From IMG/VR virus record IMGVR_UViG_2778261544_000009: 35,624 bases of DNA. One strand, given 5' to 3'. Both the position numbers and the translations under genes were made by a program. Under the pieces are notes generated by a model. The model searched no databases, was not told the DNA's origin, and saw nothing but the letters and a program-made list of their open reading frames with translations. This document shows positions 595 to 34,871 of the stretch, one piece after another (position 1 is the first letter of the stretch; every line of letters begins with the position of its first letter). This DNA is from a virus (Duplodnaviria > Heunggongvirae > Uroviricota > Caudoviricetes).

Positions 595-728
595 TTATCC
601 TTGTGTAGATAAAAATCACCAAAGAAAGAGATTGAAGCTCTTTACTTTTCTTTTGTAGTGATCAAATATTTATCTGTAGAGATTATCCGGCGGTGTTATC
701 CGCGCAGATAACTTTTAAGGATAAACGA
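595..728. promoter_or_regulatory. Divergent early promoter/operator region between repressor and ner
   Basis: 134-bp AT-rich gap between divergent genes. It holds repeated TTATC/GATAA half-sites and a 6-bp inverted repeat GTTATC-N6-GATAAC at 695-712, just upstream of the ner RBS. Confidence 0.5.
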
Positions 729-965
729 ATGATGTCTATAAATGAAGTTGTAAAACAGGACTGGCACCCGGCACATGTTGTCGCTGCGGTGCATGTGAAA
801 GGCTTTACTTTGCGTTCGCTATCAGTTGAAGCAGGTTTAAACAAGGATTCTTTAAAGAATGCCTTGTACCGCAAATGCCCTAAGTATGAGCGCATTATTG
901 CTGATGCTATCGGTGTGGCTCCGGAGGAGATCTGGCCCAGCCGCTACGTTCGTAAGGTGGCGTAA
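729..965 (+). CDS. ner: Ner-like DNA-binding early regulator
   Basis: Small ORF directly upstream of the transposase; motif ...IIADAIGVAPEEIWPSRY... matches the Ner family C-terminus. Start chosen at the ATG at 729, preceded by AAGGA. Confidence 0.75.
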   Translation: MMSINEVVKQDWHPAHVVAAVHVKGFTLRSLSVEAGLNKDSLKNALYRKCPKYERIIADAIGVAPEEIWPSRYVRKVA

Positions 966-967
966 AA

Positions 968-3055
968 ATGTTTGTGTCTGTCAACGAACTCGTGGGGCTG
1001 CCTGGTATGCCGGGAAGTGCGCAAGGTGTGAGGTACACTATAAAAAAATTGGCCTCATCAGAGCATTTTCGACGCAAACGAGCAGGTACAAAAGCCATTG
1101 AGTACCACATTGATTGTCTGCCGGAAGCGACTCAAAAGGCGCTGCGTGAACGTTATGTGGAACAACTGGTAGCTACGGAGCACAACGTTTCCGAAGTTCA
1201 GGTCGTTACCAGGAAGGCGCGCAATCCTGATGCTGTCCAGGCAATCGAAGCATATCGCGGTTCGCCACAACTGATGGAAGAACGCCTGAATGCACTGACC
1301 GAAAATCAGCGTCGGGTATCTGAAGCAAGGGCTGCGCTGGTGGTGGAAGTGCTGAAGCTGGAAAGCGACGGTAATCTCGGGCGGCTGAAAGCCATTAACT
1401 ATCTTGTCGAAAAAGCCCGTAAAGGTGAACTACCGGAACGCCTGCAACAGGCCGCAGTTAACGCCAATGCAAAACGTGGCGCTAATCGCACCATCAGTCG
1501 TGACCCGCTTTATCAGTGGGTGCTGAAGTACAACCAGTCACTGAACGCCGCAGAACGGCTGCTGTTACTGGCACCAGGAAAACGCGACGAAATAAAACCG
1601 GAACAAATTAGCTGGCTACCTGAGTTTCTGGCGCAGTATCGCCAGGTGAATGGCAGACCTATGTCTGAAGCCTACGAGGATTTTGTCGCAGAATGGCAGC
1701 GTCGCCATGCGGACGAACCGTACATGCTGGAGGTGATGCCTTCTTACGATGTGGTTCGTTATGCCATGAAGAAATTGCCGGAAGTGGTGAAACAAAAAGG
1801 ACGCGTTACCGGCAGTGAATACCGTCAGCTTGAAGGATTCACCCGTCGCGACTGGACAGCTATGCCGGTGAATTATGTGTGGATTGGTGACGGTCACGGT
1901 ATGAAGCTGAAATGTGCGCATCCGATCCACGGGCGTCCATTCTCACCGGAAGTCACATTTGTGATCGACGGTGGAACACGGTTTGTTGTTGGCTGGAGTC
2001 TTGACCTTGCCGAGAACGTGTTCGCCGTTGCCGGTGCGATACAGCACGGCATTCGCAACCACGGAAAACCGTTTCTGTATTACTCGGATAATGGTTCTGG
2101 TGAAACGGCTGACATGCTGGACAAAGAGGTCGTAGGTATTCTGCCCCGCCTGGGGATTAAACACCCTACCGGTATTGCCGGTAATCCACAGGGGCGCGGC
2201 ATTATTGAACGCCTGAACCGGACACTGCCGATGCGTATAGCCAGGAGGTATCGCACCTATTTTGGCAAGGGTGCTGACCGGGAGTCGTTGCGTGTACTTA
2301 ACCGTGATCTGCGTTCAGCGTTTAACGCCATGCAACAGGACAAGCCTCTGAACGACCGCCAGAAAGCTGCAATGCGCGAGCTACCATCGTGGGCAGAGCT
2401 TATTGAGGCTATTCGTGAAGGCGTGGAATGGTACAACAACCGCCCGCATTCTGAGCTGCCGATGAAACCGAACGGGCGGCATTACAGCCCGGCAGAGTTC
2501 AGAAAAAAACGCCTGGCAGAAGAAGACACCGAAATTGAGTGGCTGAGTGATCTTGAGCTGCGTGACATGTTCCGCCCGATGGTGGAACGCCCGGTAAGAC
2601 GGTGCGAAATTCAGTGGCTGAACAATATTTACTACGCGCCGGAGTTGCGTGACGAACACGGTCGCAAAGTGCTTATCAGTTATGACATTCATGACGCCGA
2701 GCGAATTACGGTACGTCGCAAGGACGGTAGCTTTATCTGTGAGGCGATATGGAACGGCAATAAACGCGCAGCCTTTGCTGTCAGTGCTGAATATCACAAA
2801 CAACAGCAGCGTATTAAAGGAATGCGCAAACGTGCTGAGGAAAAAATTCGTGATGCTGAGGATGAAGGCATTCAGATTCTGGAGCACAAACAGACTGAAC
2901 CCTGGCTGGATAATGTTTATCGCCCGGTTGGTAATACGGTAACCATCCAGCAACAGGATTATGAGGAGGATTACGACGAAGATTATGAACGCGATTTCAG
3001 GCTGGGTTTGCAGAAACTTGCAGCCATACAGGAACAGGATGATCCGCTGGCCTGA
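968..3055 (+). CDS. A: DDE transposase A (MuA-like)
   Basis: 695 aa; N-terminal ELVGLPGMPGSAQGV winged-helix-like motif, central VWIGDGHG catalytic block, acidic C-terminus. Followed immediately by the B ATPase. Confidence 0.93.
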   Translation: MFVSVNELVGLPGMPGSAQGVRYTIKKLASSEHFRRKRAGTKAIEYHIDCLPEATQKALRERYVEQLVATEHNVSEVQVVTRKARNPDAVQAIEAYRGSPQLMEERLNALTENQRRVSEARAALVVEVLKLESDGNLGRLKAINYLVEKARKGELPERLQQAAVNANAKRGANRTISRDPLYQWVLKYNQSLNAAERLLLLAPGKRDEIKPEQISWLPEFLAQYRQVNGRPMSEAYEDFVAEWQRRHADEPYMLEVMPSYDVVRYAMKKLPEVVKQKGRVTGSEYRQLEGFTRRDWTAMPVNYVWIGDGHGMKLKCAHPIHGRPFSPEVTFVIDGGTRFVVGWSLDLAENVFAVAGAIQHGIRNHGKPFLYYSDNGSGETADMLDKEVVGILPRLGIKHPTGIAGNPQGRGIIERLNRTLPMRIARRYRTYFGKGADRESLRVLNRDLRSAFNAMQQDKPLNDRQKAAMRELPSWAELIEAIREGVEWYNNRPHSELPMKPNGRHYSPAEFRKKRLAEEDTEIEWLSDLELRDMFRPMVERPVRRCEIQWLNNIYYAPELRDEHGRKVLISYDIHDAERITVRRKDGSFICEAIWNGNKRAAFAVSAEYHKQQQRIKGMRKRAEEKIRDAEDEGIQILEHKQTEPWLDNVYRPVGNTVTIQQQDYEEDYDEDYERDFRLGLQKLAAIQEQDDPLA

Positions 3056-3129
3056 ATAAAAAAACAGTCCGCGGGAACGGACTGTTAAACAGGGAAGCAA
3101 AGTTAATTTTAAATAACCGAGGAAATAAT

Positions 3130-4062
3130 ATGACCGATATTAATGATGTTTTCAATACGATTAATGCGCTGATTTCCGACGGCGTAAAAACTCAGGGTGT
3201 TATTGCTAAAGAAGCGGGCGTGTCAGAGGCCACGCTATCGGAACTTCGCAAAGGTCGTTACAAAGGCGATACCGAAGGGATGCATGACAAATTACAGATG
3301 TGGCATCAGGACTGGCTGAAAAGCCAGGAATTGCCAGGCGCGCCGCAACTTGTGGAAACACAAACCCTCCGTGATTTGCGCGAGCTGTTTCAGACCGTGC
3401 GTGTTATGGGATGTATCAGCGTTCTGGTTGGTGTGCCGGGTGTTGGTAAAACCGTTGCGGCCCGCGAATACAGTAACCGTGTATCTAATACCTGGATGGT
3501 GACCCTTTCCCCTGCACACTCAACAGTGACCGAGTGTCTGCTGGAACTGGCAGACGCACTGGGAATTGATAACCCGCAAAGGAGTAAAGGCGCGCTGACC
3601 CGTGCCATTCGCAAAAAACTGAACGGCACACGCGGTCTGGTGATTGTGGATGAAGCTGACCATCTGAGCATGGACGGGCTGGAGCAGTTGCGCGCCATTC
3701 AGGATGCAACAGGCGTCGGGATGGTATTGATTGGTAACCCAAGCCAGTTAGCCAAAGCCACACACCGGGGAACGGATGACCTTGCGCGTTTGTTCAGCCG
3801 TTTCGCCAGAACAAAACAACTGCGTAAAGCCAAAAAGGCTGATGTGGTGGCAATTGCGAAAGCCTGGGGCATTGAGGGTGAAGATGAATTATCACTCATG
3901 CAGAGCATAGCGGAAAAACCAGGTGCATTACGTGTATTAACTCATACGTTGAATCAGGCATGGCTGGCAGCCAGCGGGAAAGGTGTTCCGTTATCCAAAG
4001 GCTACATTAAAGCGGCTTTTAAAGAGGTTTACAGCAACCCGAAGTTACTGAACTGGTGGTAA
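3130..4062 (+). CDS. B: Transposition ATPase B (MuB-like AAA+)
   Basis: 310 aa with Walker A GVPGVGKT and Walker B VIVDEADHL; sits directly after the transposase. Confidence 0.9.
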   Translation: MTDINDVFNTINALISDGVKTQGVIAKEAGVSEATLSELRKGRYKGDTEGMHDKLQMWHQDWLKSQELPGAPQLVETQTLRDLRELFQTVRVMGCISVLVGVPGVGKTVAAREYSNRVSNTWMVTLSPAHSTVTECLLELADALGIDNPQRSKGALTRAIRKKLNGTRGLVIVDEADHLSMDGLEQLRAIQDATGVGMVLIGNPSQLAKATHRGTDDLARLFSRFARTKQLRKAKKADVVAIAKAWGIEGEDELSLMQSIAEKPGALRVLTHTLNQAWLAASGKGVPLSKGYIKAAFKEVYSNPKLLNWW

Positions 4063-4074
4063 GGGGCATAAATC

Positions 4075-4302
4075 ATGATGTCACGGAATATCAAAATGGC
4101 GACGGAAGTAAAGACCTGGTTACAGGAGCGCGGCAGCCACGTCAACGAATCCTGGCTGGGCGTGGCCCGCCCGGTGCTTGAAATAACCTGCCCGCCACCG
4201 GAGCTGGTCAGGAACGCCATCAGGATTATGGAGCATAAATCAGGGGTTGCCCGTTCAGTATGGACGGCCCGTCTTAATGGTTGTCAGATTATCTGGCGTT
4301 AA
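4075..4302 (+). CDS. Small early protein, kil-position homolog
   Basis: 75-aa ORF immediately after B; assigned by position only. Confidence 0.4.
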
Positions 4303-4334
4303 TAACGGCTTATTTATTTGTGAGGAATAACAAA

Positions 4335-4598
4335 ATGGCAAAAGTCATTATCGAAATCAAAAATGTGACATCTGAAGTTAAAGGGCAGCATTTACGCACC
4401 AATGTTAACGTGGACCACAGCGCAGAACTGGATGGTGATGAATACACGCTTGCTGGTGCGATAGCGTTACTGGTTCTGGAAAAAAGCCGGGATATCGTTC
4501 GCGAGTCAGCCTATGAGGCCATTGAAATACTGAAAAATGATGGCGTCATTTCGGGTGGCAGTGTCACAGAAGCGACAGTTGAAGGAACACGTCACTGA
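4335..4598 (+). CDS. Hypothetical early protein
   Basis: ORF with strong RBS GAGGA upstream of the ATG at 4335; the longer track ORF begins at 4281. Confidence 0.5.
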   Translation: MAKVIIEIKNVTSEVKGQHLRTNVNVDHSAELDGDEYTLAGAIALLVLEKSRDIVRESAYEAIEILKNDGVISGGSVTEATVEGTRH

Positions 4599-4612
4599 AA
4601 GGAACGCTGACA

Positions 4613-5032
4613 ATGAACGCCAAAATCAGAAACGAAATTCAGGCATTAATTCGAATTAAAATGCGTAATAACAATCCAGGAGAATTACGCGAATTTATTT
4701 TCACCCGCAAAGTTTATGAGCATGGTGAAACTACTTATCTGATTACATTTGACCATTACAGCATTTGTGCGCGTTATTGTGGCGAAAACATCTCTAATGC
4801 CATCACGTTTGGCGGTGCGTTTAACGAGGATTTATGGGAATACGTCATGGACCGCGAATACATCAGCGCGTCAGACCCGGACGCACGGGAGCAGTGGCAG
4901 AACATCTGGCGCGATTACCGGCAAATGGCGAAAGGCTGGACGCAGGGGACGTATTCTTCCCTTGCCCTGAAAGCAGTTCAGTTATCGCTGCGGCATATTC
5001 CGGCATCACTGCGCGAACCCCTGTTGTACTGA
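4613..5032 (+). CDS. Hypothetical early protein (139 aa)
   Basis: ORF in the co-directional early operon with an AAGGA RBS. Confidence 0.55.
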   Translation: MNAKIRNEIQALIRIKMRNNNPGELREFIFTRKVYEHGETTYLITFDHYSICARYCGENISNAITFGGAFNEDLWEYVMDREYISASDPDAREQWQNIWRDYRQMAKGWTQGTYSSLALKAVQLSLRHIPASLREPLLY

Positions 5033-5332
5033 GTGGTGACCGGAATGATGTGTAATCGTAAACGCTGGTCACGCGAAGACCGGGAATTTATCGAAGCCAG
5101 TGTCGGAAAAATGACCGTTGAAGAAATGGCGAAAAAACTGAAAGTTGCCACAACCGCCCTCCGGGCACATGCCAGAAGGCACGGAATATCGTTGTGTGCA
5201 TACCGAATCAGTGAGCACGACAAATATTTGTGTCGTGAACTTTATAAAGAAGGGCTGGCTATTCATGTCATTGCCCAAAAGATGGAATTAAGCAATCGTG
5301 CTGTATCCAGCATTGTATACAGCGAATATTAA
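5033..5332 (+). CDS. Hypothetical early protein with HTH-like segments
   Basis: 99-aa ORF starting at a GTG (first ATG at 5045); contains two helix-turn-helix-like stretches. Confidence 0.45.
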   Translation: MVTGMMCNRKRWSREDREFIEASVGKMTVEEMAKKLKVATTALRAHARRHGISLCAYRISEHDKYLCRELYKEGLAIHVIAQKMELSNRAVSSIVYSEY

Positions 5333-5351
5333 TTAACAGGAGCTTTATTAT

Positions 5352-5876
5352 ATGGCTAAACCAGCAAAACGAATCAAGAGTGCCGCAGCAGCTTATGTTC
5401 CTCAATCCCGCGATGCCGTGGTGTGTGATATTCGCCGGATTGGTGACCTGCAACGCGAAGCGGCACGACTTGAAACGGAAATGAATGACGCTATCGCTGA
5501 GATTACAGAGAAATACGCCTCACAGATTGCGCCCCTTAAAACCAGTATTGAAACCCTTTCAAAAGGCGTTCAGGGATGGTGTGAAGCGAACCGCGACGAA
5601 CTGACGAACGGCGGCAAGGTGAAGACGGCAAACCTGGTAACCGGCGATGTGTCATGGCGTCAGCGCCCACCATCGGTAAGTATTCGCGGTGTGGATGCGG
5701 TGATGGAAACGCTGGAGCGTCTTGGCCTGCAACGCTTTATTCGCACGAAACAGGAAATCAACAAGGAAGCGATTTTACTGGAACCGAAAGCGGTCGCAGG
5801 TGTTGCCGGAATTACAGTTAAATCGGGAATTGAAGATTTTTCTATTATTCCGTTTGAACAGGAAGCCGGTATTTAA
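5352..5876 (+). CDS. gam: Host-nuclease inhibitor Gam
   Basis: 174 aa starting MAKPAKRIKSAAAAYVPQ... and ending ...FSIIPFEQEAGI, which matches my recollection of Mu Gam. Confidence 0.85.
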   Translation: MAKPAKRIKSAAAAYVPQSRDAVVCDIRRIGDLQREAARLETEMNDAIAEITEKYASQIAPLKTSIETLSKGVQGWCEANRDELTNGGKVKTANLVTGDVSWRQRPPSVSIRGVDAVMETLERLGLQRFIRTKQEINKEAILLEPKAVAGVAGITVKSGIEDFSIIPFEQEAGI

Positions 5877-5916
5877 TACCACCACGAATATTTAATTAAT
5901 TCACTTTCTTTTAATT

Positions 5917-6201
5917 ATGGCGCGATGCGTCAGGGGATTGCTCGCGCCTGAATCTGAAATGGTGATGTTTATGACCACAAAGAGTGAACGACAAAAAACA
6001 GAAATAACAGCAGCAACGCTGATTAAAGACAGCGTCGAATGTCTGGCATCAGTACCTGCATTGATTCAACAGGCGAATGCAAAAAATCTCCGTCGCGCAG
6101 CTTCGTTTATTCGTGCAGGCATTACCCGCCAGATGATGATTGCGCAGCTGTGTATGCGCGAAGCACAGCGTCTGGAACAGATGGAGACGAGTGGTGATTA
6201 A
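5917..6201 (+). CDS. Hypothetical early protein
   Basis: 94-aa ORF; the true start may be one of the internal ATGs. Confidence 0.45.
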   Translation: MARCVRGLLAPESEMVMFMTTKSERQKTEITAATLIKDSVECLASVPALIQQANAKNLRRAASFIRAGITRQMMIAQLCMREAQRLEQMETSGD

Positions 6202-6376: not shown

Positions 6377-6758
6377 CGCAGAGAAAAATGAAATTAAATC
6401 CACATCCGCCAGCACCAGAAAACATCTTTATGATTTTTATGTCGCTTATAACCAGTGGTTAAAAAACGGAGCGCAAGAAACGGAAGGGGAAGGGTTTATT
6501 CGGGGAGTCGGATTATGCGCCAATGTTTATGACTATTTTGAATCAATCGGAGCAGACAGCGAGGCTGCGCTAGAACAATTACATGCGGATTTTGTCGCGA
6601 GTGGGCTGGATGAATCCCTGCCATTTAATGTAGATAACGTGCACTACCATGATGAATGCCTGCATGACAGATGCCACCTGAATTCTGCTCGTGTGGCATG
6701 GGTCGAAAAACACTGCATTAAGGAGATGGGGCAAAATGAGTCGCACATCCCTGATTAA
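6369..6758 (+). CDS. Hypothetical early protein (129 aa)
   Basis: Excellent RBS GAGGAGG 9 nt upstream of the ATG. Confidence 0.6.
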   Translation: MNNAEKNEIKSTSASTRKHLYDFYVAYNQWLKNGAQETEGEGFIRGVGLCANVYDYFESIGADSEAALEQLHADFVASGLDESLPFNVDNVHYHDECLHDRCHLNSARVAWVEKHCIKEMGQNESHIPD

Positions 6759-7287
6759 ATTAATTCATGTTGCCCGCCGGGAGTTGCACCTCGACGATGA
6801 CACTTACCGCGCCTTTCTGGTGCAGTGCACGGGCAAAACCAGTTGCCGCGAGCTGTCCGTTGCACAACTGGAACAAGTGCTCGATGCCATGAAAGAGCGC
6901 GGTTTTAAAAAGCAGAAAAAACATCCCCGCCGTCGCTTTAAGGGGCATGTCACACCGCGCGAGAAGATTTATAAAATCTGGCAGCAGATGTTTCTTGATG
7001 GTTTCGTCTCCGATATCAGCGACGCCGCGCTGGACAAATACGTTGAGCGCCTGACAGCCAGACGTAATGGCGGACAGGGTGTTTCCACGCTGGCCTGGTG
7101 TCACGGGGAATCGTTGCAGGTTGTGCTCGAAACGCTCAAACAGTGGCATATGCGCTGCATCCGGGAAGCCTTTGCCCGACATGGTGTGCCTTTACCTGTG
7201 AGCGAAACCGGGCGGGAGCTGCGCGGCTATGATGCACTGACCAGTGCATATGCCCGCGCACGAAACAGCGGGAGAATTGCTGTATGA
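6736..7287 (+). CDS. gemA: GemA-like protein (Mu gp16 family)
   Basis: Sequence MSRTSLIKLIHVARRELHLDDDTYRA... is Mu gp16-family-like and the gene sits directly before mor. Start taken at the internal ATG at 6736. Confidence 0.65.
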   Translation: MSRTSLIKLIHVARRELHLDDDTYRAFLVQCTGKTSCRELSVAQLEQVLDAMKERGFKKQKKHPRRRFKGHVTPREKIYKIWQQMFLDGFVSDISDAALDKYVERLTARRNGGQGVSTLAWCHGESLQVVLETLKQWHMRCIREAFARHGVPLPVSETGRELRGYDALTSAYARARNSGRIAV

Positions 7288-7733
7288 AACAGATGAAAGA
7301 GCAGGATTTATTCGAAGACCTTCGGGACGACAGCGTTCTGGAATATCTTCATGATTACCAGGAAAACACCGCTTATCCGGCGTTAATTTCTGAACTGAAC
7401 GCACTGCTGCGTAAAGAGCTGGCCCGGATTGGCGCAGACCCTGCCCATTCCCTTGAGCTGGTTGTGGCGATTTGTCGCCATATCGGCGGGATGCAGGTTT
7501 ATGTTCCGAGGGGGAATATTCTGGAGAATCTTGTCCGGGATATGCGTATCTGGCGTGATTTTAACGGCCATAATATTCCTGAACTGGTTCAGCGTTACGG
7601 AGTGACGTATAAAACCGTCTACAAGGCCATCAAACGGATGCGACGTCTGGAGCGTAACAAATACCAGCCGGATTTGTTTTACCACTCCCCGAACCTGCCT
7701 CACCCCGTTCGTCGTCCGCCACTACGCCCTTAA
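7284..7733 (+). CDS. mor: Mor-family middle/late transcription activator
   Basis: Mor/C-family C-terminal HTH block ...RIWRDFNGHNIPELVQRYGVTYKTVYKAIKRMRRLERNKYQ...; last gene of the early operon. Confidence 0.85.
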   Translation: MKQMKEQDLFEDLRDDSVLEYLHDYQENTAYPALISELNALLRKELARIGADPAHSLELVVAICRHIGGMQVYVPRGNILENLVRDMRIWRDFNGHNIPELVQRYGVTYKTVYKAIKRMRRLERNKYQPDLFYHSPNLPHPVRRPPLRP

Positions 7734-7739
7734 TCAATG

Positions 7740-7763
7740 AAGCCGGTAAATCCGGCTTTTTTT
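7740..7763 (+). terminator. Intrinsic terminator at the end of the early operon
   Basis: Stem AGCCGG / loop TAAAT / CCGGCT followed by seven T, beginning 7 nt after the mor stop codon. Confidence 0.75.
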
Positions 7764-7818
7764 ATGCCTCCGGCACCATGAAGCAGACCACGTTTAAATC
7801 TGCTTCACAGGTGCTTTT

Positions 7819-8415
7819 ATGGAAAATCAAAAATTCTCCCCGGCCTTTGAACATGCGCTGAATTTTATTCTGCGTCCCGATATCGAAGGCGTTTATGTCA
7901 ATGACCCCACTGACCGTGGCGGCGAAACCAAATACGGCATTTCTGACCGCCGCGACGGTGTGATTGACGGCAAAACCGATGTCAACGGCGACGGCAAACC
8001 GGATACCCGCATTAAGGATTTAACCCGCGAACAGGTTGCGCAGATTTACTGGCGCGATTACTGGCTACCTGCCGGATGTGACCAGTGGCCTGATGGCGTG
8101 GCGATGTTTGTGTTCGATGCGGCGGTTCAGCATGGCGTTAAAAAAGCCATCAGAATTTTGCAGGAAGCCGCTGATGTGGATGCTGACGGCATCATCGGCC
8201 CACGTACCCGTAAGGCTGTGAGTCTGTCCACCCCGGACTGGCTGCTGGCCCGCTGCATTGTCCGTCGTTCCCGCTTTTATGCCGACATCATCAAATCAAA
8301 ACCCGCCCAGGGCAAATACCTGAACGGCTGGTTTAACCGCATGGAAAAACTGACCGACGCCTGTCTGGAAATCATCGATACCCCTCTGGGCATCATGTCC
8401 GCCACGCGGGGGTGA
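7819..8415 (+). CDS. Endolysin, GH108-like N-terminal domain with C-terminal peptidoglycan-binding domain
   Basis: N-terminal FILRPDIEGVYVNDPTDRGGETKYGIS resembles the GH108 signature and the C-terminus ...DADGIIGPRTRKAV... is PG-binding-like. No N-terminal hydrophobic SAR segment. Confidence 0.75.
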   Translation: MENQKFSPAFEHALNFILRPDIEGVYVNDPTDRGGETKYGISDRRDGVIDGKTDVNGDGKPDTRIKDLTREQVAQIYWRDYWLPAGCDQWPDGVAMFVFDAAVQHGVKKAIRILQEAADVDADGIIGPRTRKAVSLSTPDWLLARCIVRRSRFYADIIKSKPAQGKYLNGWFNRMEKLTDACLEIIDTPLGIMSATRG

Positions 8416-9038: not shown

Positions 9039-9634
9039 CCCTTTCAGGCATCGCCTCTGTTCTGCTGAAAGCCGGGCCGGGGCTGATTCGTTCCGTCGGG
9101 CGCTGGTTTGGTGGCAGCACATCTGCCGCCGCTGACTCGGTGGCCGGTATGGTGGAAAGCGTCCGGGAAAGCCTTCCCGTTGCTGAACAGCAACGCATTC
9201 TGGAACAAAAACTGGGGATGCTGTCACCGGAGCAACTGGTGCAACTGGAAACCCTGAAAATTCAGCTGCAACAGCTGGAGGTGGAACGGCAGAAGCTGGT
9301 GCTGGCTGACCAGCAGGCCGCACACCACGAACAGCAGGAAACCATCCGCAATGGTGACAACGCCACGGACAGCTATGTGCGACAGACACGCCCGCTGCTG
9401 GCCCGCCTTTCCTGTTACAGCAGTCTGGCCTATGTGCTGTTGCTCTCCTGCGGCCAGATTGCCGGAGCCATTGCGGGTGCCAGAGGTATCACGCTGCATA
9501 TGCCATCACCGGACTGGGATATCACGCTGATGTTGCTTACCCCGGCGCTGGGCTATCTCGGCGTAAGAACCCTTGACGGCTTTGCCCGTTACAGCAAATC
9601 AAGCCGTCACAAAATGTCTGTGGGGCCGAAATGA
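9026..9634 (+). CDS. Holin-like membrane protein with central coiled coil
   Basis: AAGGGGG RBS; Q/L-rich heptad region followed by C-terminal hydrophobic segments. It resembles the prophage '3TM holin' architecture; family assignment is unverified. Confidence 0.5.
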   Translation: MDPLTLSGIASVLLKAGPGLIRSVGRWFGGSTSAAADSVAGMVESVRESLPVAEQQRILEQKLGMLSPEQLVQLETLKIQLQQLEVERQKLVLADQQAAHHEQQETIRNGDNATDSYVRQTRPLLARLSCYSSLAYVLLLSCGQIAGAIAGARGITLHMPSPDWDITLMLLTPALGYLGVRTLDGFARYSKSSRHKMSVGPK

Positions 9635-12994: not shown

Positions 12995-14562
12995 ACCTGA
13001 AACAACTGGCCGGAGCCGTCCGCCGTCTGCTGAACCAGGCAACCGGTGAGGAAGACACGCTGAAAAAAGAGGCGCTCAACGAAGCACAGGCCCGTCCGCG
13101 TCATGCCGGTGTGCGTTCGGCCTCGCCGGGCATCAGCGTCGCCTCCGGGCTGAATCCCGGCAGGCTGGCAGGCATTCTGCGCAATGCCGCCGACGGCATC
13201 ACGCGTGATTTTTTTATCCTTGCTGAAGAGATGGAAGAACGCGATTTGCATTACGCCTCGGTGCTGCGCACCCGCAAGCTGACGGTGGCGGGTATCGAAC
13301 CGGTGGTGGTGGCCGCCAGTGATGACGATGCTGACGTGCAACTGGCGGACGCCATCCGTGCGCTGATGGAAGCCCCGCAAATCCCTGAGCTGATGTTTGA
13401 TTTGCTCGACGGGCTGGGAAAAGGCGTGGCGGTCTGTGAAATCCTGTGGGACACCCGCAACAACCACTGGATGCCCCGTGATTATGAGTGGGTTGATCCC
13501 CGTTTTCTGAAAGCCGAAAAACCCACGCTGCGCCAGTTCCGCCTGCTGACGGACGATGAACCGGTGGATGGCGTACCGCTGACACCGGGAAAATTCATTG
13601 TTCACCAGCCGCGCCTGAAATCCGGTCTGCCGCTGCGTAACGGTCTGGCCCGTCTGGTGGCGGTGATGTATATGCTGAAATCCTTTACCGTGCGTGACTG
13701 GTGGGCATTTGCGGAAAAGTTCGGCATTCCGGTCACGGTGGGGAAATACGGTCCCAACGCCACGGAGGAGCAAATCCGCGTACTGATTGATGCGATTGCG
13801 TCCATTGCCTCGGATGCCGGGTGTGCCATTCCGCAGTCCATGCAACTGGAGATGCAGGAAACCGCCAGCCGGAATAACGGCGGCGCACTGTTCCGTGAAA
13901 TGGCGGAATGGTGTGATGCGCAAATCAGTAAGGCTGTGCTGGGGCAGACCATGACCACGGATAACGGCAGTTCGCGTTCACAGGCGGACGTGCACAATCA
14001 GGTGCGCATGGACATTGTGCGCTGGGACGCGCGGCAACTGGCTAACACGCTGAATGAATATCTGGTGCGTCCCTATATCGAGGCCAACTACGGGCCACAG
14101 GCGCACTACCCCCGTGTTGTTCTGCGTATCAGTGAAGCAGAAGATCTGAAGGCGCTGACAGATGCTCTGGTGCCGCTGATTGACCGGGGGATGCGGGTTC
14201 AGGAATCAGAGCTGCGGGACCGGTTCGGCCTGGCTGAACCGGACGACGGGGCTGATGTTCTGCATCCGGTGTCCGCCGGGATGCCGGGTGATATGGCGAT
14301 GAACCGCGAGCGCGTCGCCCTGAACCGGGAACACCCCGACGAACTGGCACAGATGGTCGATGATGCCCTGCGTGACTGGCAGAAAACCGGCGAGGCGTTC
14401 ACGAACCCGGTGCTGACACTGGCGCAGGGATGCGACAGTTTTGATGACTTTCTGAAACGCCTGCCTGAGCTTCAGGAAACGCTGAACGCGGACGACTTTG
14501 CCCTGCAACTGGCGGAGGTGTGCTTTAAGGCGCGTGCGCTGGGGGACACTGCTCATGCGTGA
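12991..14562 (+). CDS. Portal protein (Mu gp29/H-like)
   Basis: 523 aa between terminase and the F-like gene; GTG start with GAGGGAGG RBS. Confidence 0.8.
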   Translation: MNLKQLAGAVRRLLNQATGEEDTLKKEALNEAQARPRHAGVRSASPGISVASGLNPGRLAGILRNAADGITRDFFILAEEMEERDLHYASVLRTRKLTVAGIEPVVVAASDDDADVQLADAIRALMEAPQIPELMFDLLDGLGKGVAVCEILWDTRNNHWMPRDYEWVDPRFLKAEKPTLRQFRLLTDDEPVDGVPLTPGKFIVHQPRLKSGLPLRNGLARLVAVMYMLKSFTVRDWWAFAEKFGIPVTVGKYGPNATEEQIRVLIDAIASIASDAGCAIPQSMQLEMQETASRNNGGALFREMAEWCDAQISKAVLGQTMTTDNGSSRSQADVHNQVRMDIVRWDARQLANTLNEYLVRPYIEANYGPQAHYPRVVLRISEAEDLKALTDALVPLIDRGMRVQESELRDRFGLAEPDDGADVLHPVSAGMPGDMAMNRERVALNREHPDELAQMVDDALRDWQKTGEAFTNPVLTLAQGCDSFDDFLKRLPELQETLNADDFALQLAEVCFKARALGDTAHA

Positions 14563-15319
14563 AACCCTCATCCCGAAAGAGGCGCTGGCGTGGCTGAAGG
14601 CGAAGAAGCTGCGCCCCGGTTTTGATTACCGGGATGTGTGGCGGGAAGAACACCGGAACAGCTTCACCGTGGCGAAAATGCTGCAACTGGATTTGTTGTC
14701 GGATGTGAAAGCCCTTGTGGAAGACGCCCTGCAAAGCGGGCAGACGTTCAGTGAGTTCCGGGAGGCGCTGCAACCACTGCTGATAAAACGCGGATGGTGG
14801 GGCATACAGGAGATGGATGATCCGCTGACGGGTGAAACCCGCACCGTGCAACTGGGCAGCGACCGCCGCCTCCGCACGATTTTTGACACCAACATGCGCA
14901 CTGCCCGCGCGGCGGGCCAGTGGGAACGCATTCAACGGACAAAGCGGGCCATGCCGTATCTGATTTACGAGCTGGGGCCATCCCGCGAGCACCGGGCGGA
15001 GCATGTGAAATGGGCGCGTCTGTGTCTGCCGGTAGATCACCCGTTCTGGCAGACACATTTTGCCCCTAACGGCTGGGGCTGCAAATGCACCATTCGTCAG
15101 GTCAGCCGTGGTGAGTATGCGCAACTGGCGGCACAGGGCACCATTCACACCGAAGCGCCGGAAATCAGAACTGTCCGCTGGGTGAACAAACGCACGGGCG
15201 AAGAGGAAGATGTGCCGGAAGGGATTGATCCGGGCTGGAACTACAATCCCGGCATAAACCGTGAGCAGGCGCTGGCGCGCCAGCTGGCGACAAAACAGGC
15301 CCGTTTTGACAGTGAGTAA
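14555..15319 (+). CDS. Head morphogenesis protein (Mu F-like)
   Basis: Follows the portal gene; start taken at the ATG at 14555 that overlaps the portal stop. Confidence 0.7.
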   Translation: MRETLIPKEALAWLKAKKLRPGFDYRDVWREEHRNSFTVAKMLQLDLLSDVKALVEDALQSGQTFSEFREALQPLLIKRGWWGIQEMDDPLTGETRTVQLGSDRRLRTIFDTNMRTARAAGQWERIQRTKRAMPYLIYELGPSREHRAEHVKWARLCLPVDHPFWQTHFAPNGWGCKCTIRQVSRGEYAQLAAQGTIHTEAPEIRTVRWVNKRTGEEEDVPEGIDPGWNYNPGINREQALARQLATKQARFDSE

Positions 15320-15533
15320 CCCTCCCGCCGCAAATCCCCCTGAAACGCATCAGAAACGCGTTTTTTTATTCTGATGGCGTGAATGTGCATTCTGACTTTT
15401 TTGAAGGCGCTGTGGCGTTTTTGAAGGGGTTTTGAAGGGGTATTCTTCCCGTTTTCAGTGAAGCCGGTAAATCCGGCTTTTTTTCTGCCTTCCGCATACT
15501 GACCGTCGGTAACCCCAAACGACGGAGACTGAC
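15320..15533. promoter_or_regulatory. Structured F-I intergenic region: hairpins, 3x TTTTGAAGG direct repeats, terminator-like element
   Basis: Direct repeat GAAACGC twice (15342-15360); inverted repeat CATCAGAA/TTCTGATG (15348-15377); TTTTGAAGG at 15399, 15419 and 15430; hairpin plus T-run at 15460-15484; inverted repeat CCGTCG/CGACGG at 15503-15525. Confidence 0.6.
15460..15484 (+). terminator. Terminator-like hairpin, identical to the one at 7740-7763
   Basis: Same AGCCGG-TAAAT-CCGGCT stem-loop followed by a T-run. Confidence 0.65.
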
Positions 15534-16496
15534 ATGCAACCGGAACTGCTGGCGCTGTGTTTTTCCCTGCCAGAACCCATCACTGAGCTGACACCCGCTC
15601 AACTGCCGGAATGGCTTGAACTCGTTCCTGCGGGTGAGTTCACCGGGCGTGATGGCCGGACGTGGATTAACCGCAATCCGCATGAGGTGGTTGCCCGCTC
15701 GTCCGACATCAAAATTCCGGTGGACATTGAACATGCCACCGAAATTAAAGGCCCGCGTGGTGAAGATGCTCCGGCGTATGGCTGGGTGGAAGAACTGCGG
15801 GTGACGGATGGCGGCACCATTGAAGGCCGTGTTGTCTGGAACGCGTCCGCCCGGTGGGTGCTGAGTGAGCGCCGCTACCGCTATTACAGCCCGGCGTTTT
15901 TCCATGACGCGGAGGGTGTGGTGACGCGCCTGTCCAGCGTCGGGCTGACCAACAAACCTAACCTGGATTTTCCTGCACTGAATACGGAGAAAAACCCGAT
16001 GACAGTACCTGTGCAAATCACCGGCCTGCTTGGGCTGGCTGAATCTGCCACGGTGGACGATACCGTGGCCGCCATTAAACAACTTCAGGAGAACGAACAG
16101 GTGGCGCTGAACCGCGCACAGACACCTGACCTGACGAAGTTTGTGCCGGTTGAAACCCACAATCTGGCACTGAATCGTGCCGAAACCGCAGAACAACGCC
16201 TTCAGCAACTGGAAGAGAAGGAAGCCGAGGCGCTTGTGGATGCGGCCATCGAGGCCGGAAAAGTGGCCCCGGCAAACCGTGACATGTTCCTTGCCACCTG
16301 CCGCACGGAAGAAGGCCGCAAACAGTTTGCGGAGTACACCAGAGGTGCACAGCCGCTGGTGAACAACGACAAGCCCAGCCAGGGCAAGGATAAACCCGCG
16401 CAGACACTGACCGACGCCGAACTGGCGATGTGCCGCAGCATGGGTATTACCGGGGAAGAGTTCCTCGCCGCTAAACCTAAACAGGAGAATAACTGA
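15534..16496 (+). CDS. Head protease/scaffold (Mu I-like)
   Basis: 320 aa immediately upstream of the major head gene; GGAG RBS. Confidence 0.75.
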   Translation: MQPELLALCFSLPEPITELTPAQLPEWLELVPAGEFTGRDGRTWINRNPHEVVARSSDIKIPVDIEHATEIKGPRGEDAPAYGWVEELRVTDGGTIEGRVVWNASARWVLSERRYRYYSPAFFHDAEGVVTRLSSVGLTNKPNLDFPALNTEKNPMTVPVQITGLLGLAESATVDDTVAAIKQLQENEQVALNRAQTPDLTKFVPVETHNLALNRAETAEQRLQQLEEKEAEALVDAAIEAGKVAPANRDMFLATCRTEEGRKQFAEYTRGAQPLVNNDKPSQGKDKPAQTLTDAELAMCRSMGITGEEFLAAKPKQENN

Positions 16497-17398
16497 TGGG
16501 AGCAGTCACTTCCGAAGTCCTTCACGCGCTGACCACCTGTCTGAGCGCCGCTTATACCCGTGGTCTGAGTGGTGTCACCCCACAATGGCAGCGCATCGCC
16601 TCTGAAATCCCGAGTTCGTCCGCCTCCAATACCTACGGCTGGATGAAAGATTTACCGGAGATTAAGGAATGGGTCAGCGCCCGTCAGATGGCAACGCTGG
16701 ACGGTTATGGTTACACCCTTGCGAACAAAACCTGGGAAAGTTCGATCCGCGTTAAACGCGAACACATTGAAGACGATCAGATTGGTCAGTACAGCATTAT
16801 CGCTGAACGCTATGGCCGCCAGACGTCGGAGTTCCCGGACAAGCTGTGTTACCCCCTGCTGTGTGCCGGGTTTAACACCCTGTGTTTTGACGGTCAGAAC
16901 TTCTTTGATGAAGACCACCCGCTGGGCGACGGCACCTACAGCAACGTTGTCGGCACCCCGGCATCAGACCAGGGAGAACCGTGGTTCCTGATTGATGATT
17001 CTCAGGTACTGAAACCCATCATCTGGCAGACGCGACGCGCCTTTAAGTTTGAAGCCCTGGATGATCTGAACAGCGAGCACACCTTCAAGAATAACGAGTT
17101 CCTTTACGGGGTGGACGGTCGCTGCAATGCGGGCTTCGGCTTCTGGCAGACCGCCGTCGGTTCCCGTGCGGCACTGACAGCGGAGAACTACGAGAAGGCC
17201 AGCAATCTGCTGCTGGGTATGAAGGCCACCAACGGTGAACCGCTGGGCATCCGCCCGACCACCCTTGTGGTGGGGCCGAAAAACCGTGCGGCTGCGAAGC
17301 GCATCATTGACGCCATGCTGGTTAACGGCGGCGATTCCAACATCTGGTACAAGGATGTGGACATCGTGGTCAGTCCGTTCATCACCACCCCGGCATAA
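16496..17398 (+). CDS. Major head subunit (Mu T-like)
   Basis: 300 aa; its start overlaps the stop of the upstream gene (TGATG). Confidence 0.8.
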   Translation: MGAVTSEVLHALTTCLSAAYTRGLSGVTPQWQRIASEIPSSSASNTYGWMKDLPEIKEWVSARQMATLDGYGYTLANKTWESSIRVKREHIEDDQIGQYSIIAERYGRQTSEFPDKLCYPLLCAGFNTLCFDGQNFFDEDHPLGDGTYSNVVGTPASDQGEPWFLIDDSQVLKPIIWQTRRAFKFEALDDLNSEHTFKNNEFLYGVDGRCNAGFGFWQTAVGSRAALTAENYEKASNLLLGMKATNGEPLGIRPTTLVVGPKNRAAAKRIIDAMLVNGGDSNIWYKDVDIVVSPFITTPA

Positions 17399-17791: not shown

Positions 17792-18228
17792 TGGGGTATA
17801 TCACGCAGGAAGACCTGTTACGCGCGGACGGCAATCTTGTCTGGAACATGGCGATTAACCGGGAAACCAACGAACTGGATGAAGACAAAATCCGTCAGGC
17901 CATCAGTGATGCCGAAGCGGAAATTGATTCGTTTCTGTCCCGCCGCTACCAGCTGCCGCTGGGGGTGACGGAAATCCCGCGCCCGCTGCAACGCGTGGCG
18001 GTATCGCTGGCGTTTTACTGGCTATCAGAGCGTGACAATCAAATCACGGAGCTGATCCAGAAACGCTACGACGACGCCATTAAAACCCTGCGTGAGATGG
18101 CGAACGGCACCCGCGACCTGGGCCTGCCGACGTATGCCACCCCGGCAGAAACCGACCACGGGAAAATCATTGTGGTGGGTGCCAACGCCCGGCTGTTCAC
18201 CCGTAACAACCTGAAAGGGGTGCTGTGA
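17791..18228 (+). CDS. Putative head-tail joining/connector protein
   Basis: 145-aa ORF with start/stop overlap to its neighbours. Confidence 0.5.
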   Translation: MGYITQEDLLRADGNLVWNMAINRETNELDEDKIRQAISDAEAEIDSFLSRRYQLPLGVTEIPRPLQRVAVSLAFYWLSERDNQITELIQKRYDDAIKTLREMANGTRDLGLPTYATPAETDHGKIIVVGANARLFTRNNLKGVL

Positions 18229-18770
18229 TGGGGATTTCTGTACAGGTCAGCGGTGACCAGCGGCTGGAGGATATCCGCCGCGCCGTTGAAAAGCTGGCAG
18301 ATGGTTCATTGCAGGCAGAGCTGCTGGAAAGTATCGGTGCGGTGGTGGAATCACAGACCCGTCGCCGCATCATCGATGAGAAAACCAGTCCGGGTGGCGA
18401 ACGCTGGCCGGACTGGTCTGACGGATACAAAAAGACCCGCCACGGCAACCAGAGTCTGCTGCGCGGTGAAGGCCATCTGCTGGAGAGTATCCAGTACATC
18501 GTGGAAAACCGCGTGGTGCGTATCGGTTCACCGCTGGATTATGCCCGCATCATGAATGACGGCTTTTCCGGCAGTGTGCCGGTCAGCGCCCACAAACGGC
18601 TTATCTCGCAGTGTTTCGGGCAGGCGCTGAAATATCCGGTCTGGCAGACCGTCGGCGCACATAACCGCATGATGAACATTCCGCAACGAGAATTTCTGGG
18701 GCTGTCTTCTGCCAACCAGCAGGAGCTGCAACAGGTTATCAGTCATTTCTGGAAGGAGGTTCTGCCATGA
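18225..18770 (+). CDS. Putative virion morphogenesis/tail completion protein
   Basis: 181 aa; motif ...LLRGEGHLLESIQYIVENRVVRIGSPLDYARIMNDGF... resembles the phage virion-morphogenesis family. Confidence 0.55.
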   Translation: MMGISVQVSGDQRLEDIRRAVEKLADGSLQAELLESIGAVVESQTRRRIIDEKTSPGGERWPDWSDGYKKTRHGNQSLLRGEGHLLESIQYIVENRVVRIGSPLDYARIMNDGFSGSVPVSAHKRLISQCFGQALKYPVWQTVGAHNRMMNIPQREFLGLSSANQQELQQVISHFWKEVLP

Positions 18771-26060: not shown

Positions 26061-26587
26061 ACGCCATTGCCCGCCGTCTGCGGCTGATGGTTGACCGTGC
26101 CATTGTCCGCATGGTGTCTGACAGTCTGGAGCGGCAGAACCTGCAAATCCAGACGCTGGCAGATGCCACTGATGACGATGTGGAACGCTTCCAGAATTAC
26201 GGGTTTACTTCCGTTCCGCCGGAAGGTTCAGAAGCCATCGTGCTGGCCGTGGGCGGACGGCGTGACGGGCTGGTTGCCATCGCGGTGGAGGATAAGCGAT
26301 GTCGCCCTAAAGGCTTGTCCACCGGCGACGTCCGGCTGTATCACCAGGACGGCAAATCACATATCACGTTAAGGAAAGGCGGAATTATTGAAATCACAGG
26401 AGAACAATTAAACTTTTCAGGGAAAACGGTAAATCTCACCGCCGACGAATTGCTGAATATTATCGGTAAACAAATGAAATTCGTCGGTCCCTGTGAATTT
26501 ACTGAAGATGTCAGAATCAACGGTAAATCATTCATCGAACACATTCATAAGGACGGCGACAATGAGAATACATCACCGCCCGTATGA
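26051..26587 (+). CDS. Baseplate assembly/spike protein (V-like)
   Basis: 178 aa in the baseplate block. Confidence 0.55.
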   Translation: MGLNAIARRLRLMVDRAIVRMVSDSLERQNLQIQTLADATDDDVERFQNYGFTSVPPEGSEAIVLAVGGRRDGLVAIAVEDKRCRPKGLSTGDVRLYHQDGKSHITLRKGGIIEITGEQLNFSGKTVNLTADELLNIIGKQMKFVGPCEFTEDVRINGKSFIEHIHKDGDNENTSPPV

Positions 26588-33320: not shown

Positions 33321-33896
33321 ATGAAAATCAGAGCGATAAAAGGCATCAGAAATGCCCATTATCTCGAAAATGGTGCGGTTGACTGCGAGGTGTTATTTGA
33401 AGGTGAAACGGAATTCGTCCCGTATACCGCCATGCAGGATGATACCGCAATGACAGGCCAGCGCATCTGGGAAGAGTTACAGAGCGGCAAATGGGGTGAA
33501 ATCGCCCCGTTTACAGTCACGCCTGAACTTATCGCAGCGGCAAAAGATGCCAAAAAGATGGAAATCGAGGCGTGGCGCACAGAACAGGAGGCGCAGCCGT
33601 TCACGTTCGAATGGAACGGCCGCCCTTGGAATGCTGGCCCCGACTCACTGGCCCGTCTTTATCCGGTAGTAATGGCGGCGAAATCCGATACGGCAAGAAC
33701 CGCCCTTGCGTGGGGTGACGCCAATAATCAACAGGTGAAACTGTCAATGTCGGAACTGGAAGAACTGGCGGTAGCAATGGCGCAGGCGCAGCTCGATCGC
33801 AATGACGGGATTTATCAGCGCCAGCGTGAAATGAAGGAGCAGCTTTCCCGGCTGTCCATACTGGACGAGGTGAGAGCGTTAACTGTCGGTGATTAA
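33321..33896 (+). CDS. Putative tail fiber assembly/chaperone protein (second)
   Basis: 191-aa ORF immediately downstream of the large fiber gene. Confidence 0.55.
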   Translation: MKIRAIKGIRNAHYLENGAVDCEVLFEGETEFVPYTAMQDDTAMTGQRIWEELQSGKWGEIAPFTVTPELIAAAKDAKKMEIEAWRTEQEAQPFTFEWNGRPWNAGPDSLARLYPVVMAAKSDTARTALAWGDANNQQVKLSMSELEELAVAMAQAQLDRNDGIYQRQREMKEQLSRLSILDEVRALTVGD

Positions 33897-34019
33897 ATAA
33901 TCAGTTTGTATAGTTTATGACGATCGATAACATCATATCGATCGTCGGTTTGCATCGGTTGTGATTAAATACCCCCAGCCCTCCGGGCGGTCATGTCTGG
34001 TTATTACACAGGGGGAATC
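33897..34019. promoter_or_regulatory. mom-operon regulatory region with GATC-containing inverted repeat
   Basis: Perfect 11-bp inverted repeat GACGATCGATA-N6-TATCGATCGTC at 33919-33946 carrying two GATC sites; CCCCC...GGGGG elements nearer the com start. Confidence 0.6.
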
Positions 34020-34205
34020 ATGGACTCTGTTCGCTGTAAAAACTGCAATAAATTACTGTTTAAAGGAGGTTTTAAGCATATAGAAATTAAATGCCCTCGC
34101 TGTAAACGTTACATTGTCATATCGAATGCCAAAGAGCATCCCACGGAGCTGTATTGTGGGAAAAGAGAAGAAATCACGCATTCTGACAAAACCCTGCGTT
34201 ATTGA
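34020..34205 (+). CDS. com: Com zinc-finger translational activator of mom
   Basis: 61 aa, CKNCNKLLF...CPRCKR zinc finger ending ...[10 protein letters not shown]; AGGGGGA RBS. An alternative ATG lies at 33993. Confidence 0.85.
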
Positions 34206-34851: not shown

Positions 34852-34871
34852 TCCCACTTAATGAATAAAAA

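Follow-up and report, generated by a model that had tools for sequence, protein, structure and literature searches.

A probable strong gyrase site beside a predicted Mor-type late promoter in the F-I gap of a Mu-like prophage

The F-I gap and its prophage

The window, meaning the whole 35,624-nucleotide stretch of DNA that was analyzed, carries a 214-bp gap between the F gene and the I gene, the latter encoding the protease/scaffold protein (Table 1). Besides the genes listed in the table, Pfam assignments made over the whole window identify a large terminase gene and a Mu-type portal gene, and further prophage proteins include GemA, Mom, and proteins resembling gp36, gp44, gp45, and gp46. Judged by this gene content, the window is a Mu-like transposable prophage. 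Among 5426 complete E. coli genomes, ~46 carry copies that are 93-98% identical over the F-I gap, and the closest deposited phage is Klebsiella phage Kp4866-3, with ~68% DNA identity. The relationship to Mu is mosaic, with 80-85% identity at positions 4061-5952, 73% at 6736-7649, and 88% at 34030-34903. When the head region was compared with Mu by blastn, no DNA-level match was found except short pieces of the terminase genes, and the I protein shares 27.5% identity with Mu I. Its identity is 58% to the I protein of L026, an IMG/VR relative, and 45% to that of Vibrio phage 1.136.O. A search of genome contigs with the I protein yielded only three distant and uninformative loci.

Table 1. Coordinates of the F-I gap features and of related elements in the window
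Feature	Position	Strand	Basis or detail
Mu transposase A gene	968-3055		Pfam assignment
MuB gene	3130-4062		Pfam assignment
Mor/C-family activator gene	7284-7733	+	PF08765
Module copy upstream of lysozyme gene	7736-7813	+	32-nt recurrence, box, folds
Mor box of lysozyme module	7736-7751		AATGAAGCCGGTAAAT, with terminator
-10-like hexamer of lysozyme module	7774-7779		CACCAT, 22 nt after box
Hairpin of lysozyme module	7780-7806		GAAGCAG/CTGCTTC
Shine-Dalgarno of lysozyme module	7809-7813		AGGTG
Lysozyme gene	7819-8415		Pfam assignment
F gene	14498-15319		PF04233
Counterpart of SGS left arm	15320-15380	+	Colinear with Mu, Kp4866-3, and L026, all with C(T/A)GAAA(A)CGCG
GAAACGC, two copies	15342-15348, 15353-15359		Within 11-bp tandem duplication, 15342-15360
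8-bp inverted repeat	15348-15355, 15369-15376		CATCAGAA and TTCTGATG, around T7 at 15361-15367
Predicted gyrase core	15381-15392		Palindrome GAAT-GTGC-ATTC, from alignment to annotated Mu cut
Counterpart of SGS right arm	15393-15449	+	Three phased repeats, then TATTCTT
Right-arm repeat units	15397-15407, 15417-15429, 15430-15440	+	TTTTTTGAAGG, GTTTTTGAAGGGG, TTTTGAAGGGG
Exact 9-mer, three copies	From 15399, 15419, 15430		TTTTGAAGG, spaced by 20 and 11 bp
A/T-rich GTTTTC	15451-15456	+	Directly upstream of Mor-type box
Mor-type box	15457-15472	+	AGTGA-AGCCGG-TAAAT, 14/16 identical to Mu 9173-9188
Intrinsic-terminator hairpin and T run	15460-15484	+	GAAGCCGG-TAAAT-CCGGCTTT, terminator scan; overlaps Mor-type box
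-10 hexamer of predicted I promoter	15495-15500	+	CATACT, 22 nt after box
Hairpin before I	15503-15525	+	Arms CCGTCG (15503-15508) and CGACGG (15520-15525); 3' arm overlaps GGAG (15524-15527) of I
I gene (protease/scaffold)	15534-16496		PF10123
T gene (major head protein)	16496-17398		Pfam assignment
G-family gene (virion morphogenesis)	18225-18770		PF05069
Candidate Mor-box promoter inside gp45-like gene	26419-26463	+	Box AGGGAAAACGGTAAAT (26419-26434), -10 TATTAT (26458-26463)

A first-pass annotation made from the letters of the sequence had reported that no G-like open reading frame lies between F and I, and an ORF check of the gap agrees. The reading frames of at least 20 amino acids found there are short, overlap one another, and run antisense to I, and they give no support for small proteins in the gap. 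A G-family gene is found farther on, after the gp36-like gene and downstream of T, and a relative in strain PSS-15 is annotated with a G-family gene in the same downstream place. G is not lost in this prophage and sits downstream of T instead. The PSS-15 prophage interrupts aaeB and spans ~34.3 kb, with its F-I gap ~46% of the way along. For the prophage of the window, whose left end is cut off, the gap is estimated to lie ~45% of the way along rather than at 50%, and the Mu gyrase site is found at 48.7% along Mu.

The same annotation had listed two copies of GAAACGC, an 8-bp inverted repeat around a T-run, three copies of TTTTGAAGG, a terminator element shared with another locus, and a CCGTCG/CGACGG hairpin by the ribosome-binding site of I, and all of these are present as described. 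The GAAACGC pair is part of an 11-bp tandem duplication, GAAACGCATCA followed directly by GAAACGCG, of which Kp4866-3 and L026 have a single copy. GAAACGC is not enriched in the window (11 copies observed versus 7.5 expected). The inverted repeat, folded as RNA, gives -11.4 kcal/mol with z = -2.0. No further exact copies of TTTTGAAGG are found in the 35.6 kb, where ~0.27 would be expected on both strands, and three exact 9-mers within 40 bp are far beyond chance. GAAACGC and TTGAA-like motifs were considered as transposase-binding sites since both occur at Mu-type ends. This reading was rejected: the repeats persist with different transposases, and GAAACGC shows no enrichment. A search of the gap against Rfam gave sroD as the sole match, which is sub-threshold (20.7 bits and E = 0.17, where the gathering score is 50) and probably is caused by the terminator.

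Phased repeats and the gyrase site of Mu

[quoted passage not shown] When the window was aligned with Kp4866-3, L026, Mu, and a Mu-type prophage of E. coli TUM9757, a shared order of blocks was evident in all five lineages. The C(T/A)GAAA(A)CGCG block is followed by a loosely conserved core and three T-tract repeats, and then by an activator box and a -10 sequence (CA.ACT); a hairpin comes next, ahead of the ribosome-binding site and ATG.

The right half of the Mu SGS begins GATTTTTTAAAACGCGCCACGGGATTTTTAAACCGGTATTTAACGG in the 133-bp fragment, centered on the Mu cut, that was used by Sutormin et al. Positions 15393-15456 of the window align with this right arm over 63 columns at ~67% identity. 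The local-alignment score of 29 stands against 17.3 +/- 2.3 for dinucleotide shuffles, only one of 2000 of which reached it. For the right arm of Kp4866-3, the score is 40 versus 17.7 +/- 2.5, and none of 1000 shuffles reached it. In an 8-kb comparison of the head region with TUM9757, the sole blastn match is a 43-bp segment (15398-15440) with 41 of 43 positions identical (95%), despite I proteins that are 26% identical. Kp4866-3, L026, and TUM9757 serve as intermediates that link the right arm of the window to that of Mu.

The spacing of the repeats is 20 and 11 bp in the window, TUM9757, Kp4866-3, L026, and L064, and is 21 and 12 bp in Mu. In Klebsiella phage ST405-OXA48phi1.1 and Vibrio phage 1.136.O, the last two repeats are still ~11 bp apart. 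The exact 20-mer TTTTGAAGGGGTTTTGAAGG is present in 24 IMG/VR contigs, most of which are window-type, with one TUM-type contig and two of a third lineage. In both third-lineage contigs, the element lies ~25 nt upstream of an I-like gene.

A physical signature of phased bending is also apparent. When the periodicity of T on one strand was measured at 10-11 bp in windows of 63 bp, the region from 15394 ranked first among 35,562 positions. As a positive control, the Mu SGS right arm ranked third among 36,655, and the strongest signal in the whole Kp4866-3 genome is also located at this element. The choice of the T signal was partly post hoc; with the W (A/T) and AA/TT signals, the region is within the top 0.1-0.4%, not first.

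Conservation among close relatives was assessed by counting variable columns in 19 distinct relatives. The repeats are nearly invariant, and variation is seen in the left arm, the predicted core, and the 15406-15410 spacer. The core is the most variable stretch, with 50% of its columns affected, and the left-arm counterpart is moderately conserved, with 24% of its columns varying. In Mu, the right arm with its repeats, which give phased bending, is essential and the left arm is dispensable (PMC10052514; PMC13284261; PMC6379681). The pattern seen here, in which the repeats are constrained and the core and left arm are loose, fits these published roles. If bending were the only signal, the repeats would not have to be conserved as exactly as they are.

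The alignment to the annotated Mu cut predicts a gyrase core at the palindrome GAAT-GTGC-ATTC, with a 4-bp stagger at 15385-15388, give or take 2 bp. The F gene ends 65 bp from this predicted cut. Measured from its center, the A/T patches of the right arm lie at +14.5, +35, +46.5, and +57.5, and those of Mu lie at +14, +34.5, +47.5, and +58.5 from the mapped cut. In the left-arm region, CATCAGAAACGCGT is a match for the CCATCAGAAAACGCGT that stands at the 3' end of Mu G.

The E. coli gyrase motif derived by Topo-Seq has arms with a G/C periodicity of ~10.5 bp (Sutormin et al. 2018, PMC6379681). The unit TTTTGAAGGGG resembles the consensus arm CCTTTAAGGGGG of this motif, and the predicted core resembles its core GTAT-NNNN-ATAC. 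These likenesses were drawn by consensus string alone, a measure that fails to single out the Mu SGS. When sequences were scored against the 133-bp Topo-Seq consensus, either as whole sites or as right arms alone, the true Mu SGS ranked just 247th to ~1000th. The window site has z = 2.1-3.0 by the same proxies, which were discarded because this positive control on Mu failed. Overall, homology, conservation, and periodicity support the proposal that the repeats are the homologue of the Mu SGS right arm and belong to a predicted strong gyrase site.

Mor-type box, terminator, and the predicted promoter of I

Some elements downstream of the repeats recur near the start of the Mu middle operon. Mor binds a 16-bp element spanning -51 to -36 that consists of two 5-bp inverted repeats separated by a GC-rich hexanucleotide spacer, and its target promoter Pm has a -10 but no -35 sequence (PMC4287176; PMC4390567). 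Directly after mor, the Mu sequence reads cagTAAAGCCGGTTAATCCGGCTTTTTTTACGTCCTCAATATCCTG. From the published descriptions and this sequence, AGTAA-AGCCGG-TTAAT (Mu 9173-9188) is deduced here to be the Mor box of Pm, and a TATCCT located 22 nt downstream of the assigned box fits the published numbers. The corresponding box of the window is a poorer dyad (AGTGA/TAAAT) than that of Mu. If transcription starts at 15508, near where the start of the predicted promoter is expected, the center of the box is at -43.5. Pm also has an A/T-rich site for the alpha-CTD just upstream of the Mor site (PMC4390567). By analogy, GTTTTC could be a proximal UP-like contact for the alpha subunit of RNA polymerase.

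The CATACT of the window, a moderate -10 hexamer only, aligns with CAAACT of the Mu promoter PI, and A.ACTG is invariant in the five lineages. No -35 sequence is found upstream of I, and a sigma-70 scan, which needs both hexamers, found no promoter there. In the five-way alignment, the Mor-type box occupies the position of the C-type box of Mu PI. Judged by position, the predicted I promoter is therefore homologous to Mu PI, yet its type is that of Pm (Mor) and not C. The features expected of a C-type promoter were not found in the window: the box is of the Mor type, the activator is 33% identical to Mu C, and a tblastn search of the window revealed no second member of the Mor/C family. The one activator that was found is 62% identical to Mu Mor, and it presumably binds the boxes.

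The terminator scan identified an 8-pair stem followed by T7 (-12.8 kcal/mol, z = -3.1) downstream of F, which probably ends the upstream lys-to-F late operon. This hairpin overlaps the Mor-type box, and the composite of box and terminator follows mor in Mu and the mor-like gene in the window. The shared terminator element noted in the first pass is thus best read as more than a terminator: an activator box of the Mor type is fused with the terminator hairpin, an arrangement also seen at Mu Pm. Its 32-nt stretch at 15459-15490 recurs at 7738-7769 with 31 of 32 positions identical. Among relatives, one of the 34 columns at 15457-15490 varies, compared with 27-33% at third codon positions. Upstream of I in Kp4866-3 and L026, GCGGTTAATCC is kept and a good stem and T run are absent. 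Because the box is kept without the hairpin, the DNA sequence must be constrained, and not the RNA hairpin alone.

When up to three mismatches are allowed, six matches to the box are found in the window versus 0.27 expected, and three of these are regarded as putative promoters. In addition to the I promoter, one is part of the module before the lysozyme gene, and Kp4866-3 has a full module before the gene in the lysozyme position. Another is the candidate inside the gp45-like gene, where TATTAT follows the box by 23 nt, and where the box and -10 sequence remain identical to Kp4866-3 although the coding DNA around them has diverged. The weak matches at 10455 (+) and 32784 (-) have no -10 sequence at the right distance and were not counted as promoters; a match at 4995 (-) also was left out of the count.

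The hairpin that precedes the ribosome-binding site of I has a predicted fold of -9.7 kcal/mol. Hairpins in the equivalent place are found in Kp4866-3, L026, Mu, and TUM9757, although their arm sequences differ. They were compared by folding each sequence separately, and the Mu-type and window-type stems are one alignment column out of register. At the I and lysozyme promoters of the window, both promoters of Kp4866-3, that of L026, and Mu PI and Pm, the stem begins 0-3 nt after the -10 sequence. The stem arms across these promoters are CCGTCG, GAAGCAG, CTGTCCGTC, CTGCAT, CTGCTCA, and TGATGA. If transcription starts ~8 nt after the -10 sequence, as can be inferred for Pm, the 5' arm would be left outside the promoter's own transcript. 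On one reading, the hairpin would block the translation of read-through transcripts only.

The combined arrangement and its relation to known systems

The first-pass annotation had suggested a gyrase site analogous to that of Mu and/or a late promoter. Homology, conservation, and the physical signature support both parts, with the functions being predicted ones. The F-I gap is therefore proposed to be the counterpart of the central G-I region of Mu and to hold two adjacent cis-elements, a gyrase site and a late promoter, with a probability of roughly 0.7. Of the alternative sites tested, one prophage site alone (Sp18) could replace the Mu SGS (PMC10052514), and the estimate was set at this level because of that result. 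Thus, similarity and a central position are no guarantee of function. A link to Sp18 was considered and set aside, as Sakai, the host of this prophage, was absent among the matches for all three E. coli intergenic types.

[quoted passage not shown] If the parallel with Mu holds, processive supercoiling that starts at a near-central site may help to bring the prophage ends close to each other for replicative transposition. Directly downstream of the gyrase site would lie a late promoter driving the I-T head operon, composed of the Mor-type box overlapping the lys-to-F terminator, CATACT 22 nt farther on, and a start near 15508. A single Mor-like protein would activate this promoter, its lysozyme twin, and probably the third promoter inside the gp45-like gene, giving a cascade of two steps (early to late) versus the three steps of Mu. 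The hairpin after the -10 sequence would require RNA initiated farther upstream in order to form, and it may limit the translation of I from such read-through transcripts.

Some of the same features can be viewed differently. The gap might be an ordinary spacer whose repeats and hairpins arose by chance or are neutral remnants of a deleted G gene. Some of the gap sequence may be a relic, given the resemblance of CATCAGAAACGCGT to the 3' end of Mu G, and GAAACGC lacks enrichment. However, this view is already contradicted by the conservation data and is highly improbable. The TTTTGAAGG repeats are kept even between lineages in which the I proteins share 26% identity, three exact copies within 40 bp compare with the 0.27 expected in the whole window, and the box varies far less than silent codon positions. 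Another view is that the 32-nt element is a mere intrinsic terminator that was copied to two loci, with the real late promoter elsewhere or unrelated. Its canonical hairpin and T7 run, the location of both copies after the end of an operon, and the lack of a promoter in the sigma-70 scan all would be expected of such an element. Nevertheless, this view is quite unlikely, given that the identity extends upstream of the hairpin (TCA.TGAAG), that a -10 sequence is at a fixed distance in all copies, and that the third copy, within a coding region, has no hairpin. Furthermore, the I-upstream copies in Kp4866-3 and L026 retain GCGGTTAATCC despite losing the stem and T run, this sequence is also found after mor in Mu, at the site of Pm, and Mor/C promoters are expected to lack a -35 sequence.

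The repeats might instead be sites for a sequence-specific protein, either from the phage or from the host nucleoid, or might form a curved activating region for the I promoter, without any gyrase site. In favor of such a role, the units are conserved almost exactly, including a spacer (CGCGCCACGG) common to Mu and Kp4866-3, which seems to go beyond the needs of phased bending. In addition, the repeats span roughly -110 to -67 relative to the predicted start, and the repeat 11-mer forms arrays in two unrelated GC-rich contigs (L058 and L052). This role seems unlikely, however, because experiments have identified the homologous Mu sequence as the gyrase-wrapped right arm (PMC10052514; PMC6379681; PMC13284261), and the unit resembles the gyrase arm consensus. 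Moreover, repeats of this kind are absent from the promoter copies at lysozyme and gp45, and the repeats persist beside C-type promoters (TUM9757 and Mu), a Mor-type promoter (the window), or no promoter (L064), as well as with different transposase types.

If the proposal of adjacent gyrase and promoter elements is correct, the gap is a further example of a known arrangement, namely a probable strong gyrase site beside an activator-dependent late promoter. Like the SGS of Mu and D108, the candidate lies directly upstream of I near the middle of a transposable prophage, has an alignable core and right arm with three T-tract repeats, and combines outstanding helical T-periodicity with constraint on the right arm and looseness in the left. 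It differs in that the window has no G gene on the left and in that its unit TTTTGAAGGGG, in place of TTTTAAAC in Mu, is closer to the Topo-Seq arm consensus. In addition, its right arm runs straight into the promoter, whereas Mu has ~70 bp more.

The promoter likewise combines features of two Mu promoters. Mu Pm and the window share the near-identical sequence AAGCCGGT(T/A)AATCCGGCTTTTTTT, the 22-nt gap between box and -10, the terminator hairpin that overlaps the box, and the hairpin that follows the -10. Mu has a single copy of this module, from which the C-producing middle operon is transcribed, whereas in the window, which has no C gene, it is proposed to drive late operons directly (lysozyme, I, and probably gp46 onward). 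The position upstream of I, the -10 hexamer, and the hairpin and ribosome-binding site that follow are shared with Mu PI, which differs in having a C-type box (TACTCAAATAGCATAACC) that is recognized by C. Mor and C do not cross-activate (PMC4287176).

Current understanding is not overturned by these findings, and the element joins the known kinds of Mu-type SGS and Mor/C promoters. The predicted site would extend the Mu SGS type to a second E. coli prophage lineage that is widespread, with the ~46 genomes noted above. Its head genes are too diverged to be aligned as DNA, and the right-arm repeats are almost unchanged. Such sequences provide a natural comparative data set for gyrase-site strength, in which the phased T/G-tract repeats and one spacer are conserved, not the cleavage core. 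The regulatory layout also appears to be simpler than that of Mu, with one Mor-like activator acting on late operons via Pm-type boxes that double as terminators.

A broader extension can be offered only tentatively. When placed in helical phase, TTTTGAAGGGG might be a near-optimal, portable module for wrapping by the GyrA CTD, carried on a cassette of ~45 bp that is kept or exchanged among transposable-phage lineages that cannot otherwise be aligned, and perhaps among other GC-rich phages. Mor/C promoters as a class might also carry a start-straddling hairpin that blocks only the translation of read-through transcripts.

A precedent for such a hairpin is the fold-back inhibition of IS10, in which transcripts that read through from outside occlude the ribosome-binding site. 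The window hairpin is similar in that its 5' arm lies upstream of the predicted start of its own transcript, such that only outside transcripts could bring about occlusion. It differs in that occlusion is a prediction here and would be partial for I, with two of the four Shine-Dalgarno bases covered. In the lysozyme leader, the stem is extended by pairing between CACC in the -10 region and GGUG in the Shine-Dalgarno sequence, and at Mu Pm the hairpin covers the start codon.

Hairpins after the -10 of Mor/C-type promoters

In all Mor/C-type promoters examined, a hairpin begins 0-3 nt 3' of the -10, with arm sequences that differ from one promoter to the next. Transcripts initiated at the promoter itself should lack the 5' arm. 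For the lysozyme gene, base pairing of the stem in the leader involves the Shine-Dalgarno sequence; at the Mu middle promoter, Pm, it is the start codon that the stem covers. These structures could act as a block to translation on read-through transcripts.

A third promoter candidate, with a site resembling the Mor box (a 16-bp activator element), lies within the gp45-like baseplate gene, 5' of the gp46-like gene. Its box and -10 form conserved islands when compared with the Klebsiella phage Kp4866-3, and the site may be this lineage's counterpart of the Mu P promoter, differently placed.

Promoter-associated hairpins and other sequence features of the window and related phages
Feature	Record	Coordinates	Sequence
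Hairpin after -10	window	15503-15525	
Hairpin after -10, lysozyme leader	window	7774-7813	
Hairpin after -10	Mu (L034)	9214-9251	
Hairpin after -10	Mu (L001)	2523-2553	
Third Mor-box-like promoter (candidate)	window	26419-26463	AGGGAAAACGGTAAAT - 23 nt - TATTAT
Degenerate sequence 3' of F	window	15326-15340	CGCCGCAAATCCCCC
Hairpin at the same position	Kp4866-3 (L002)	2396-2413	GAGGCGGTAATCCGCCTC
11-bp tandem duplication	window	15342-15360	GAAACGCATCA then GAAACGCG
GATC inverted repeat	window	33919-33946	GACGATCGATA...TATCGATCGTC
Repeats flanking it	window	33889, 33961	GTGATTAAATA

The F-I gap and its repeat unit

Directly 3' of the F stop codon, the window carries a degenerate box-like or terminator-like sequence, whereas Kp4866-3 has at this position a clean hairpin that resembles, minus one base, the module in which a Mor box overlaps a terminator hairpin. 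Where the window has a tandem duplication, Kp4866-3 and an IMG/VR relative (L026) have only one CT(G/C)AAACGCG, and Mu has CAGAAAACGCG, located within the 3' end of gene G.

A search of Rfam matched window 15397-15485 to the sroD sRNA with 20.7 bits (E = 0.17), against a gathering score of 50. This match falls below threshold; the terminator hairpin is its most likely cause, and the sequence is not a true member of the family. The record for phage D108 (L036, 450-578) places a 42-aa hypothetical protein, gene 31.5, across the strong gyrase site region between G and I; no credible ORF was found in the equivalent stretch of the window.

The 11-bp unit of the gap, TTGAAGGGG(T), also occurs in two GC-rich contigs. 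In L058 (IMG/VR 3300042691_026848), two arrays of 4-6 units each, iteron-like in appearance and about 115 bp apart, lie on the reverse strand at approximately 1010-1200 and adjoin a gene judged by eye to be primase-like. In L052, three units (reverse strand, 2470-2510) sit between a Mu-type portal-like gene and an F-like gene, both judged by eye.

Early region, com/mom and right end

Window 693-4062 was compared with the early region of the E. coli PSS-15 prophage (L035, 5843-9061). The ner-like (228 nt) and A-like (1992 nt) genes of this relative have exactly the lengths of their Mu equivalents, whereas A of the window is 2088 nt long. Therefore, lineages exchange the early region but retain the same head region and central element.

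Upstream of com/mom, an inverted repeat with GATC sites is flanked by two copies of another sequence, and the whole region (33889-33971) is reminiscent of the Mu mom region that is under Dam/OxyR control. It showed no Mor box, and the phage is without a C gene. The sequence 3' of mom (34868-35010) contains a terminator-like hairpin, GCAGCGGTAAATGCCGCTG, with a T run. After it, ATCTTGAA(T/A)(A/G)A occurs three times at intervals of about 30 bp, and these copies are possible transposase-binding sites of the right end. On the minus strand, the ORF at 34929-35624 encodes a sigma-54 interaction domain, and therefore is probably the disrupted host gene.
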